From Candidatus Helarchaeota archaeon (GTDB lineage: Archaea; Asgardarchaeota; Lokiarchaeia; Helarchaeales; RDOG01), in the NCBI GenBank assembly GCA_019058315.1, contig JAHPZH010000001.1:245566-309565 (forward strand): DNA of 64,000 nucleotides, given 5' to 3'. This document shows, piece after piece, positions 2,338 through 6,246 of the stretch. Position numbers and translations under genes: made by a program. The notes under the pieces are model-generated. The model made no database searches, was not told the origin of the DNA, and saw nothing but the letters and a program-made list of their open reading frames with translations. Each line of letters starts with the position of its first letter. Position 1 is the first letter of the stretch.

Positions 2338-2499
2338 TTATACAATTTTAATTCGTTCTTTTTGACATTTAGAACATATCCAAGTTGTATCCTCCCCCTT
2401 TGGAAGTCTTTTTACCATTTTAACCCTTCCTACTTGCTTTTTTGGAAATTCTTGTTGACAAATTTTACAAATAAACGTAGCTTTGTGTTTTTTTGGCAT
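2338..2499 (-). CDS. Small C4 zinc-finger protein, 53 aa (not in ORF track)
   Basis: Hand translation MPKKHKATFICKICQQEFPKKQVGRVKMVKRLPKGEDTTWICSKCQKERIKIV*; two CxxC pairs; GTGA SD-like motif upstream of ATG; fills an otherwise empty gap. Confidence 0.75.
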   Translation of the reverse strand: MPKKHKATFICKICQQEFPKKQVGRVKMVKRLPKGEDTTWICSKCQKERIKIV

Positions 2500-2705: not shown

Positions 2706-3440
2706 ATGAAAAGAAAATCAAAGAAAGCTATAAAAAGGATAATGCTTTGTTTAAGCGTATTTATGTTAACGGGATTATTTTTTAATATTGTTTTTAATAA
2801 TAATTTATCCTTTGGCTGTCATGATTTAAGTTTTCAAGGTATAGGGGGAACTTCTCTAGTTATTTTTGGAATAGGAATGAATAGTTTTTCAGATTTTTTT
2901 ACACCGACTGATCAGAGGTCTGAATTAGAACAAAATACGCGATTACGTATTTATAATTTAATCCTTGAGGATGAAGGTATTCATTTACGAGAGGTCTGTA
3001 GAAAATTAAATAAGAAAATGGGGGTAATTCAATATCATATTAATGTATTAGAAAAAGCAGGGTTAATTAATTCGTTAAAAGATGGAAGGTATAGACGCTT
3101 TTTCGTGAATAATAACCATAGTTCAGATTCCAAAAGAAATCTAATAATTTCTGTTATAAAAAGAGAGCCATCTTTCAAAATATTACAAACTCTTATTGAA
3201 AATAAAAAAGTATACCACAATGATTTGGCAACACTTTTAAAAATTAGTAGTCAAGCAATAACTTGGCACATTAAAAGACTACGAGGATATGAACTTATTG
3301 ATTATGAAAAAGAAGGAAAGCAAAAAGTCTATTATATTCGTCAAGATGTATTACCGCTTCTAAAATCGATTTTAGAGAATGCAAAGTCAGGAATTAGTGG
3401 GGGTTCCGCACCACTTACAGAAACGCCAACTGGGATCTAA
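2706..3440 (+). CDS. Membrane-anchored tandem winged-helix transcriptional regulator
   Basis: Basic N-terminus plus hydrophobic segment(s), then two wHTH domains (GIHLREVCRKL..GVIQYHINVLEKAGLI; ISSQAITWHIKRL). Confidence 0.8.
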   Translation: MKRKSKKAIKRIMLCLSVFMLTGLFFNIVFNNNLSFGCHDLSFQGIGGTSLVIFGIGMNSFSDFFTPTDQRSELEQNTRLRIYNLILEDEGIHLREVCRKLNKKMGVIQYHINVLEKAGLINSLKDGRYRRFFVNNNHSSDSKRNLIISVIKREPSFKILQTLIENKKVYHNDLATLLKISSQAITWHIKRLRGYELIDYEKEGKQKVYYIRQDVLPLLKSILENAKSGISGGSAPLTETPTGI

Positions 3441-4082
3441 TAAAGTTCCACAATTTTTACATGTATTTTTCTCTTTAAACATATCTTCTTTTAATAAAAA
3501 GCCACACTTCTTACAAAAACGCCATTCTTTATTTATAACTTGTTGACAATTTGGACATCTGTTATAATCTTTTCCCTTTTTAATTATTTCATTTTCTTTT
3601 TGACTTGGAACACTATATTTTAACTTAATCATTTTACCCTCAATTTTAACATCTATTTCCGAAATTTTAGAGTACAATTGTTTGAAAGCATGTTGAATTT
3701 TTTTGAGTTCAACTGATTTAAAACCATCAAATTCGCGAGTTCGAAGAATTGAACCACAATTAGTACAAATATTCTCATTAAGTATTGACGAATCATTTAA
3801 ATGTTTTTGATGAAAAGGGAAACCACATTTTATGCATGATAAAGTCGGCTCATCATCTTCTAAACTTCGTTCGCATTTTGAACAAAGTAAATTTTTACTG
3901 GATTTTGACATTTGAATATCAAGCGACTTTAATTTGGCAAGATATTTTGCTTTAATAATTTTAAATAGATTAGGATCAATTTCTTTCATCTCCAGTTCCC
4001 TAGAAAGTATTTGTAATATATCTAAAATGATGTTACGTTCAACCATAATGTTAGAAAGAACTTCGAATTTTACATTATCCAT
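3387..4082 (-). CDS. RING-variant finger + double zinc-ribbon protein with N-terminal SHOCT/steadiness-box-like helical hairpin
   Basis: C-x2-C-x12-C-x2-C-x4-H-x2-H-x11-C-x2-C at 3756-3884; two C-x2-C-x10-C-x2-C (W-R-F-C) ribbons at the C-terminus; likely start ATG 4082 (track starts at TTG 4124). Confidence 0.75.
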   Translation of the reverse strand: MDNVKFEVLSNIMVERNIILDILQILSRELEMKEIDPNLFKIIKAKYLAKLKSLDIQMSKSSKNLLCSKCERSLEDDEPTLSCIKCGFPFHQKHLNDSSILNENICTNCGSILRTREFDGFKSVELKKIQHAFKQLYSKISEIDVKIEGKMIKLKYSVPSQKENEIIKKGKDYNRCPNCQQVINKEWRFCKKCGFLLKEDMFKEKNTCKNCGTLLDPSWRFCKWCGTPTNS

Positions 4083-4178
4083 AAATATAACTGTCCAAAT
4101 TAGTATTAAATTGCATACTATCAATAAAAGTGAAAAATTAATAAAAAATTAAAAAATAAAATTAATCTTAGAGATAAT

Positions 4179-4709
4179 TTATTCTTCTTCTACAGCAATC
4201 CCTGGAAAATACCATCTTTTGCCGGTAACACGATCTTTATGTGCCACAGCGATATTTTTTTCTTCGAGTTTTTTTATTTCTTGCTCTGCTATTTCTGAGT
4301 TTAGATTACATGCCTTCATTATTTCCTCTAGATTAGTCCAGCCTTTTTCTGCAGCTAATTCGATGATAGAATTTTCAATTCCTGTTAATTCTAGAGGTGT
4401 AAATTCAATTAGTACTATTTTTTTCTTTGTTTTCTTTATTGAAATCAATTTTTGATCTTTTAACTTATCAATTGCTTCATTCATTTCTTCAATAGATACT
4501 TGATCGCTTTGCATCCTCTTTTTATTTACTTCTAAAAATAATTGAGCAAGATCCATAATCCCATGACTTATATCAGGGTTCTTTCCAATTTCTAAGATTT
4601 CGTTAGTTAAACGCTCAATATTTGCTTTTTCAATTTCTTTCTTGGATAATTTTTCCCCTACTTTGATTTTTTTACCGCCAATTTTAACGGTAATTTTTCT
4701 TTGTGACAA
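4179..4709 (-). CDS. ESCRT-II Vps22/Vps36 (EAP30)-like tandem winged-helix protein
   Basis: Pattern EILEI..HGIMDLAQLF..VNKKR..VSIEEMNEAIDKLK..LIEFTPLEL..IIELAAEKGW..RWYFPG matches the recalled SNF8/Vps22 C-terminal WH pair (GLITLEEL..VSQDDLIRAIKKLK..LIQSVPAEL..YWLP). Confidence 0.8.
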   Translation of the reverse strand: MSQRKITVKIGGKKIKVGEKLSKKEIEKANIERLTNEILEIGKNPDISHGIMDLAQLFLEVNKKRMQSDQVSIEEMNEAIDKLKDQKLISIKKTKKKIVLIEFTPLELTGIENSIIELAAEKGWTNLEEIMKACNLNSEIAEQEIKKLEEKNIAVAHKDRVTGKRWYFPGIAVEEE

Positions 4710-4720
4710 ATTTGTTCTCC

Positions 4721-5749
4721 CTAATCTTCTCCTAATTCTTTTAATCTGTTTTTATATCTTGTCATCATTTTATCGTATCGTTCTTCAGAGATGGTTCCAT
4801 CTATGAGCTTTTCATCTAATTTTAACATTAATTCACGGATTTTTACAACTTCACTTGATTCAGTAGGTCTAGTTCTTGCTGTATCACTTTTGATAGGTCC
4901 CATTATATTAGCTAATACTTGTGAATCGTAAACAGTACCTATTCCGCCTCCTTTACGTCTTGCCAATTCCTGCATAGCTTTGATTTTTTCCATATCTAGC
5001 GCACTAATTCCTGCATCTTGGAGCATTTTATATCTCGTTATTTCCGCTTCTGCATCTGTTACAGAAACAACTTTTTGAGTATAGGCTTTTTCTATCTCAT
5101 CAGGAAGTTTAACACTTATTAAATTCAAATCAATAAATTTAATTCCAAATTCGTTAAACATCTCTCTGGATTTAACTCGTGCTATAGATTCAACAGTTTC
5201 TTTCTGGGTATACACTTCCATTGATCCCATTTTTGACAATGCAGAACCTAAAATTTCCATTATTTCATCTCTAACCCAATTTCGAATGTCACCTTCATAA
5301 TATTTAGGTTGACCTGCTACAAGATTGGTGAGAAATATTTTCGGATCTTCGATTTGAATCGTCACATTTCCATAAGAGCTCATAGGAATCCTATCACGGG
5401 ACATTATTTGCCCTTCAGGGATTCCAAATTTAATTTTTAAAAGGCCTAAATCGACAAAAGTATAATCTGAAACTATAAAGAATTTATCATCAACTTTATG
5501 TCTACCAGGCCCTAAGACATCATAAATTTTGCCGTCTCTATAATAAACACAAGCTTCTCCTTCTCGCACTAGGACATTTTTATCTCCTTTTGGGACCTCT
5601 TTTCCTTTTCGTCCACAGTAGAAACGTTTAATAATCTCCTTTCCTCTTCCTTTATCTTTTGATGGAGAAGTAACGTACATATCATCAAGTTCCGCTGGAG
5701 TATAGTCCTTTTCCCATCCTAATTTCCATTCTTTTCCCATTTTAATCAC
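4721..5749 (-). CDS. Soluble SPFH/band-7 protein (YdjI-like) with C-terminal SHOCT-like hairpin
   Basis: LVREGEACVYYRDGKIYDVLGPGRH, IEDPKIFLTNLV, FGIKFIDLNLISVKLPDEIEKA are SPFH hallmarks; no TM helix; C-terminal LDEKLIDGTISEERYDKM. Confidence 0.88.
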   Translation of the reverse strand: MIKMGKEWKLGWEKDYTPAELDDMYVTSPSKDKGRGKEIIKRFYCGRKGKEVPKGDKNVLVREGEACVYYRDGKIYDVLGPGRHKVDDKFFIVSDYTFVDLGLLKIKFGIPEGQIMSRDRIPMSSYGNVTIQIEDPKIFLTNLVAGQPKYYEGDIRNWVRDEIMEILGSALSKMGSMEVYTQKETVESIARVKSREMFNEFGIKFIDLNLISVKLPDEIEKAYTQKVVSVTDAEAEITRYKMLQDAGISALDMEKIKAMQELARRKGGGIGTVYDSQVLANIMGPIKSDTARTRPTESSEVVKIRELMLKLDEKLIDGTISEERYDKMMTRYKNRLKELGED

Positions 5750-6246
5750 TCCATTTCTATTATTTGTTTAGTCCCGGAAACAATATCAATACGTTCCTGG
5801 TATTTTTCTCTAAAATCTCTCATTTTTTTTATGACTTCACGTACCTGTTCAGTTACATCTTCTTTGCTGAACGCCCTACTATTAATATCTGAAGTATAAT
5901 CTTTAAGATCTTGAGCCATAAGTATAATTTCAGAGTCACAAGCTATCATTGCCTCTAATAATTTCTCTTGGATTGATACTACGTTCCAACCGGGTGCGTA
6001 TCCATATTCTGCTGTTTTAATTTTTGTGATGTAATTGTGAATATCGCCCCTAGCTTTTTCAATAATTTTCATAAGATCTTTGTTACCTGCGTTAACTGCA
6101 CTTTCCAGTGTACTGACCATATTTTCTTCACTTTCTTTCAAGAGCCTTATTGCTTTTTCTCTAACGACCCTATCGGTTTCTCGGCGTTCTTCCTTTTTTT
6201 TATAGCCACGATATCCTGGCACTAACTTCATCATCTTTCCTAACAA
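5746..6246 (-). CDS. Conserved all-helical protein (PG-Y-x-GY...ERRETD family)
   Basis: TTG start with AAGGAG SD; motifs VPGYRGYKKKEERRETD and AEYGYA; 4-nt overlap with SPFH gene; predicted helical bundle; function unknown. Confidence 0.7.
   Translation of the reverse strand: MLGKMMKLVPGYRGYKKKEERRETDRVVREKAIRLLKESEENMVSTLESAVNAGNKDLMKIIEKARGDIHNYITKIKTAEYGYAPGWNVVSIQEKLLEAMIACDSEIILMAQDLKDYTSDINSRAFSKEDVTEQVREVIKKMRDFREKYQERIDIVSGTKQIIEME

Follow-up and report, generated by a model that had tools for sequence, protein, structure and literature searches.

A short SPFH-linked Vps22 with a conserved, predicted N-terminal hairpin in a Helarchaeota genome, and the probably coincidental likeness of this hairpin to a segment of the adjacent RING protein

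The window, that is, the whole stretch of 64,000 nucleotides of Candidatus Helarchaeota DNA analyzed here (GCA_019058315.1, contig JAHPZH010000001.1), contains a compact gene cassette followed by a gene for a RING protein, all on the minus strand, with homologues that carry Helarchaeota annotation. The first gene of the cassette (5746..6246) encodes a 166-aa helical protein and overlaps by 4 nt with the gene for an SPFH/Band 7 protein (4721..5749; Pfam Band_7, E = 1.7e-18) that terminates in a steadiness-box-like helical hairpin. The helical protein belongs to a family with matches in 137 of the 400 genomes of the phylum, and in many loci of Asgard archaea an SPFH gene adjoins it. The SPFH protein is 78-89% identical across the lineage, and has an invariant Asp-Gly-Lys stretch of its own. 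The SPFH gene ends 11 nt upstream of the gene for a 176-aa Vps22/EAP30-like protein with a tandem winged helix (4179..4709; Pfam EAP30, 33.3 bits, cut-off 26.8), which we refer to as the short Vps22. After an AT/T-rich gap of 96 nt (4083..4178, minus strand) comes the gene for a 231-aa RING-DZR protein (3387..4082; Pfam DZR), with the ATG at 4082, where its homologues begin as well. On the plus strand, a double-HTH gene (2706..3440) converges on the RING gene; the same adjacency is kept in relatives (genomes G001, G003, and G005 and loci L023, L025, L028, and L101), and in the genomes of the order the two genes are usually arranged tail to tail. A 53-aa zinc-finger-like protein encoded farther along (2338-2499, minus strand) is near-identical in L025, is positionally conserved, and has no close paralogue in the genome.

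The short Vps22 resembles the Asgard Vps22/EAP30 proteins (PF04157; cog.002769, PMC10936438; PMC9192718) in the tandem winged helix, along which its core aligns with that of canonical Asgard Vps22, and in the C-terminal G-K-x-W-Y-F-P-G motif, at 25-36% identity. In contrast to canonical Asgard Vps22 of ~240 aa, in which the N-terminal region includes the steadiness box (PMC10936438), the short protein has a basic, hairpin-like start instead of the N-terminal helical/steadiness-box region, and its gene sits behind an SPFH gene rather than in an ESCRT locus. In the alignments, ~65 N-terminal residues of the canonical protein are missing from the short Vps22 and from all homologues in its clade, which bears out the proposal of an earlier, sequence-only reading of this DNA that the hairpin stands in place of the canonical helical region. 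In the phylogenetic tree, the short Vps22 forms a clade of its own on a long stem, and AU tests rejected none of four placements (p 0.16-0.35). No other stand-alone Vps22 was found in the genome, which is 94% complete.

The N-terminal hairpin is the best-conserved part of the short Vps22, with 85% pairwise identity compared with 68-79% elsewhere; residues G11, G12, K13, I15, K16, G18, E19, and K20 are invariant in the nine homologues. Such strong conservation suggests that the hairpin is probably functional. The first 28 residues hold 8-11 Lys or Arg, and the segment of residues 6-16 (4662..4694, minus strand), with its Gly-Gly turn, can plausibly be read from the translation as a two-residue beta-hairpin with one Ile/Val face (I6, V8, I10, I15, V17) and one Lys face. 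The 150 best Vps22 matches, drawn from 400 genomes, showed no counterpart of this N-terminus, for which an alignment with the canonical Vps22 linker can also be made. An NfeD-like domain is no more than a lead as to its source, with no Pfam NfeD match in the genome or in the flotillin-linked proteins. Judging from the conservation pattern, the alignments, and the gene order, the short Vps22 is a real variant of Vps22: lineage-specific, N-terminally truncated, equipped with a putative basic hairpin and linked to SPFH.

The RING protein consists of a steadiness-box-like helical hairpin, a RING-like finger, a beta-beta-alpha-hairpin segment, and a double zinc ribbon. All eight cross-brace ligands of the finger (C67, C70, C83, C86, H91, H94, C106, C109) are invariant in the lineage, and the nearest Atlas clusters are RING-type, with a TM score of only 0.33. 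The RING finger encoded in the window (3756-3884) lacks the hydrophobic E2-contact residue and the proline of C-P-x-C, which suggests that E3 activity was lost in this lineage; the proline is kept in most outgroup RING orthologues and also in L024 and L101. Most outgroup RING orthologues retain the usual E2-contact residues. Residues 1-65 matched the ESCRT-I headpiece 6vme with a probability of 0.84 and an rmsd of 0.6 A over 52 residues, but with an E-value of 1.5, and the Z score of this N-terminal hairpin (6.4) was tied with those of many unrelated helical hairpins, so that the headpiece likeness is nonspecific. Steadiness-box-like hairpins are thus present at the C-terminus of the SPFH protein (window 4724-4855) and at the N-terminus of the RING protein (3897-4082); two further proteins of the genome convincingly fit the pattern (C5:555873 and C5:130026).

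The second hairpin segment comprises residues 143-153 of the RING protein (3624..3656, minus strand), after the RING domain and the helix 128-140 and ahead of the double zinc ribbon. An AlphaFold2 model of residues 1-168 from a 22-row alignment (mean pLDDT 79) places strands at 144-147 and 150-153, with a pLDDT of ~65 compared with ~35 in the first model, built from a shallower alignment; we therefore treat this segment as a predicted beta-hairpin with modest confidence. In most orthologues across the order the hairpin is alignable and divergent, and in G001 and P0016 it is ambiguous. The outgroup hairpins presumably resemble strands 3-4 of ubiquitin. A possible partial ubiquitin-like fold of residues 112-153 drew no support from the fold searches, which were filled with matches to the helical hairpin rather than to the beta region. 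Probably, the RING hairpin is an old, private structural element, packed against the helix and strands that precede it.

The sequence-only reading described both segments as one motif, I-x-VKI-x-GK-x-IK. On translation, its coordinates, the identity of 8 of 11 positions, and the location of the second segment between the RING domain and the zinc ribbons all proved correct (the coordinates span 11 residues, the quoted strings 12). Two-residue beta-hairpins commonly have an x-Gly turn followed by Lys. The two segments share with such generic hairpins, of which the proteome has 10-19 examples, the alternating Ile/Val and a turn glycine with a lysine behind it; three further matching positions are found in this genome only. 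In a scan for further copies, the exact pattern, which was itself derived from these two segments, occurred in no other ORF of the genome, and 19 of the 4,629 genes carried the generic core I-x-[VI]-x-[IV]-x-G-K. Ile and Lys make up 10.4% and 8.8%, respectively, of the residues of this proteome.

Several comparisons put the per-pair probability of an 8/11 match at ~0.002-0.003 (about 0.2-0.3%). When the pair was shuffled, such a match arose in 7 of 3,000 trials (an equal BLOSUM62 score in 87 of 3,000), in ~20 of 6,000 random pairs of unrelated proteins, and in 4 of ~3,150 unrelated adjacent gene pairs genome-wide. The last number does not exceed that predicted by the rate in random pairs, which means that the genome as a whole shows no excess. 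Since a window contains some 50 neighbour pairs, we estimate that an 8/11 match should turn up in roughly one of every 7-10 windows. A BLASTP comparison of the short Vps22 with the RING protein yielded an E-value of 0.28 under default statistics, and in a search with a profile of the Vps22 hairpin, the RING hairpin ranked 5th of 6,356 ORFs, below unrelated proteins.

The likeness fades in the relatives. Across the six loci where both genes are paired, the Vps22 and RING hairpins are identical in 8 (the window), 7, 5, 5, 4, and 4 of the 11 positions; against a constant Vps22 hairpin, the identity increases solely along the RING tree in the direction of the window's branch, and the deeper-branching RING proteins match it worst. 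What persists in the RING segment is the hydrophobic face together with the glycine of the turn and the next lysine, a core (I-x-V-x-I-x-G-K) present in 6-7 of the 7 RING proteins of the lineage that bears the cassette. Six of the eight matching columns are found in most RING proteins of this lineage, one in 3/7 and one in 1/7 of the RING orthologues. The RING proteins of the cassette lineage fit the Vps22 hairpin at 4-8 of 11 positions, compared with 1-2 (5 in one case) for the outgroup RING proteins; this better fit is a single evolutionary event and inseparable from chance. Thus, the statement that the same motif occurs in both proteins does not carry over to the orthologous loci, where 4-7 of 11 positions agree and the generic core alone persists. 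Poor conservation in orthologues, which the sequence-only reading had itself named in advance as evidence against the motif, is largely what these loci display, with no joint change of the two segments.

Could the two segments nevertheless share an origin without sharing a function, a piece of the RING gene having been copied once into the truncated start of the Vps22 gene when the cassette arrived, fixed there, and allowed to decay in the RING gene? The genes adjoin, the Vps22 N-terminus is new, none of the 150 best Vps22 matches mentioned above having a counterpart that covers it, and the six widely shared columns would be accounted for. However, the flanks of the segments are dissimilar, the poorest matches come from the deepest-branching RING proteins, and the codons are identical at 5 of the 8 matched residues (P 0.36), a level set by codon bias that gives no indication of recent copying; accordingly, recent gene conversion between the segments was rejected. 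Moreover, the N-terminus of the short Vps22 can be aligned to the canonical linker, so remodelling in place would suffice. Such a copying event strikes us as quite improbable.

The gene orders in the order to which the window's genome belongs point to separate histories of the RING gene and the cassette. The RING gene was identified by profile in 6 of the 7 genomes (the match in G006 covers the generic RING only). RING orthologues, most with a divergent hairpin at the same position, occur in G001, G003, G004, and G005 (82-94% complete), the same four genomes in which neither the short Vps22 nor the cassette SPFH was found. In G001, a genome of the same family, and in L104, the RING gene directly follows a homologue of a 66-aa gene, with no cassette between them; conversely, in L026 and L027 the SPFH gene and a hairpin-bearing Vps22 gene are followed by an SSB gene where the RING gene would adjoin. 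(In L027, the SPFH gene, at 1755-2774, is split into parts of 265 and 60 aa, possibly by an assembly error; it is intact in L026.) Contig scans with the RING and SPFH alignments found nothing. An SPFH gene lies directly upstream of the short Vps22 gene in every locus with context, and the RING gene adjoins the cassette in 7 of 8 sampled lineages. Within the same loci, the RING proteins are 50-53% identical compared with 70-87% for the products of the cassette genes.

The spacing of the genes tells a similar story. The claim that the RING and Vps22 genes belong to one operon is unconfirmed: the 4-nt overlap and the 11-nt gap within the cassette contrast with the 96-nt T-rich gap ahead of the RING gene, and a T-rich gap of 89-120 nt recurs in all paired loci long enough for checking. 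The gap possibly accommodates a candidate terminator and a separate RING promoter, and the RING gene would seem to be transcribed on its own. Given the RING genes without a cassette in relatives, the tight spacing within the cassette, and the gap that follows it, we read the locus as the likely outcome of insertion of the helical-SPFH-Vps22 cassette upstream of an older, separately expressed RING gene.

These observations also bear on a functional connection between the hairpins. The two hairpins do not covary: that of Vps22 is fixed while that of the RING protein varies, and in L024 both differ, in different ways. Each is also found in loci in which the gene for the other is not adjacent, and unrelated proteins fit the Vps22 profile equally well or better, so that the proposal of a shared motif for pairing is unsupported here. 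Direct pairing by strand exchange, coupling the RING module to ESCRT-II, would make use of two adjacent genes, of two (predicted or putative) amphipathic hairpins in the same register, and of the known involvement of RING proteins and ESCRT-II in one Asgard pathway (PMC9192718). Still, it appears very unlikely in view of the lack of parallel change, the occurrence of each hairpin in loci without the other next to it, the apparent separate transcription of the RING gene, and the like charges that would meet, both hairpins being lysine-rich. Complex prediction for RING residues 1-160 and the short Vps22, with separate alignments, scored 0.00 twice against a mark of 0.32; the controls came out unfolded as well, so that this result is evidence neither way. 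Alternatively, the hairpins might be versions of one docking element that binds the same partner, most likely an SPFH oligomer recruiting ESCRT-II and the RING protein at equivalent sites. The persistence of the hydrophobic-face and turn columns in the cassette-lineage RING proteins, less so outside, is compatible with this scheme, as is the adjacency of the genes in most lineages. We nonetheless regard it as quite improbable: RING orthologues have a hairpin at this position where the cassette SPFH was not found, the RING protein diverges faster than the cassette proteins, the charge of its hairpin is not constant, the turn glycine is missing in one orthologue, and the steadiness-box-like hairpins would provide a more conventional SPFH-RING link, if there is any. 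Taking both forms together, a shared docking motif is unlikely.

Because the likeness fades in the relatives and the genes have separate histories, it is most likely a coincidence, that is, a probable convergence of two unrelated short beta-hairpins. Under this convergence, a Vps22-like gene would have been stripped of the N-terminal helical/steadiness-box region and become part of a cassette with the helical-protein and SPFH genes; the cassette carrying the short Vps22 would then have been inserted ahead of the resident RING gene, and recent drift within the sub-lineage, in an Ile/Lys-rich proteome, may have lifted the convergent likeness to 8 of 11 positions. As the short Vps22 is always encoded behind an SPFH gene, the role toward which we lean is docking, with the hairpin serving as a tether between the winged-helix pair and the SPFH scaffold, an acidic membrane, or both. 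The earlier suggestion of SPFH as a partner is therefore reasonable for the conserved Vps22 hairpin, but not for a motif common to both proteins. Somewhat less probably, the hairpin would close off the surface exposed by the loss of the helices, either in its own chain or in a homodimer. There is a functional analogy, and no more than that, with human VPS22, which binds the membrane via a basic N-terminal helix (bioRxiv 10.1101/2022.09.13.507863): both N-termini are strongly basic, but the element is a helix, H0, in the human protein and a predicted beta-hairpin in the short Vps22.

The coupling of an SPFH scaffold gene with an ESCRT-type component is shared with Meth_adaptin (PMC10936438) and the Bacillus pspA-samGHI/ydjGHI genes (PMC13713150), where an SPFH protein recruits PspA, a homologue of ESCRT-III (PMC13713150). 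Other parallels are the pairs of SPFH/flotillin and Vps22-like genes of Lokiarchaeia (L116-L118, L124), with a winged-helix pair and a variable N-terminal module; SPFH/flotillin genes adjoin genes for Vps22-like winged-helix proteins with different N-termini in G167, G168, G173, and G010. The cassette described here differs from the other SPFH-linked loci in that the N-terminal module amounts to only ~25 residues, the SPFH protein ends in a steadiness-box-like hairpin, and an ESCRT-III gene is missing. In L116-L118, flotillin-linked proteins combining a beta domain with EAP30 start with K-[IV]-P-[IV]-G-[EK]-[KE]-V, similar to residues 14-21 of the short Vps22, which may be due to chance; the tree is compatible with a kinship of these proteins with the short Vps22 (p-AU 0.30).

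Other combinations of these modules were encountered as well. A protein of 495-557 aa that begins with an HTH and has an EAP30-like C-terminus is encoded beside a second SPFH-like gene in L022/L127 (G000 C5:1093640-1096024) and in L126 (G001). The two genomes of the family have in common 628-644-aa proteins with a Vps22-like C-terminal winged helix (G000 C5:494814-496700 and L097:2513-4447). A second cassette of helical-protein and SPFH genes, followed by a zinc/TPR-like gene (L026:473-2441 and L125:950-3956), adjoins the first one in L026, and G213 has a related one. In L070:109-1926 and L086:127-1932 (family f26), fusions of ~600 aa comprise zinc ribbons, a coiled coil, a possible PH domain, and a Vps22-like end, and in L093-L095 (family f28) zinc-ribbon-Vps22 paralogues adjoin an ESCRT-III-like gene.

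The ESCRT/ubiquitin locus of the genome (L098; G000, contig C10, 102-113 kb) encodes Vps4, two ESCRT-III proteins, Vps25, UEV-Vps23, ubiquitin, E1, E2, and a RING protein. Vps22 is absent from this locus, and Vps28 was not found in the genome, which is 94% complete; neither was a stand-alone Vps22 found in G001, G003, G005, or G006. In this locus, Vps25 is tail to tail with UEV-Vps23 across a gap of 56 nt, and G002 has Vps22 and Vps28 there. With these gaps in mind, one could think of the two hairpins as one new docking element that emerged after the cassette had brought a truncated Vps22 next to the RING gene, binding SPFH or each other in replacement of the lost Vps28/steadiness-box link between the ubiquitin machinery and ESCRT-II, a scheme that we consider distinctly unlikely. 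Should the shared-motif reading hold, it would amount to a new wiring of a RING protein to ESCRT-II; as it stands, the likeness, viewed as a shared motif, is probably of no consequence. The Vps22 variant itself matters, if modestly: in a genome with an ESCRT locus lacking Vps22 and Vps28, the sole stand-alone Vps22 found carries a 12-residue basic hairpin and belongs to an SPFH cassette. The arrangement of SPFH with Vps22-like genes recurs in Lokiarchaeia, and the hairpin offers a small, deletable element with which to ask whether Asgard ESCRT-II may depend for its recruitment on SPFH membrane scaffolds instead of ESCRT-I.
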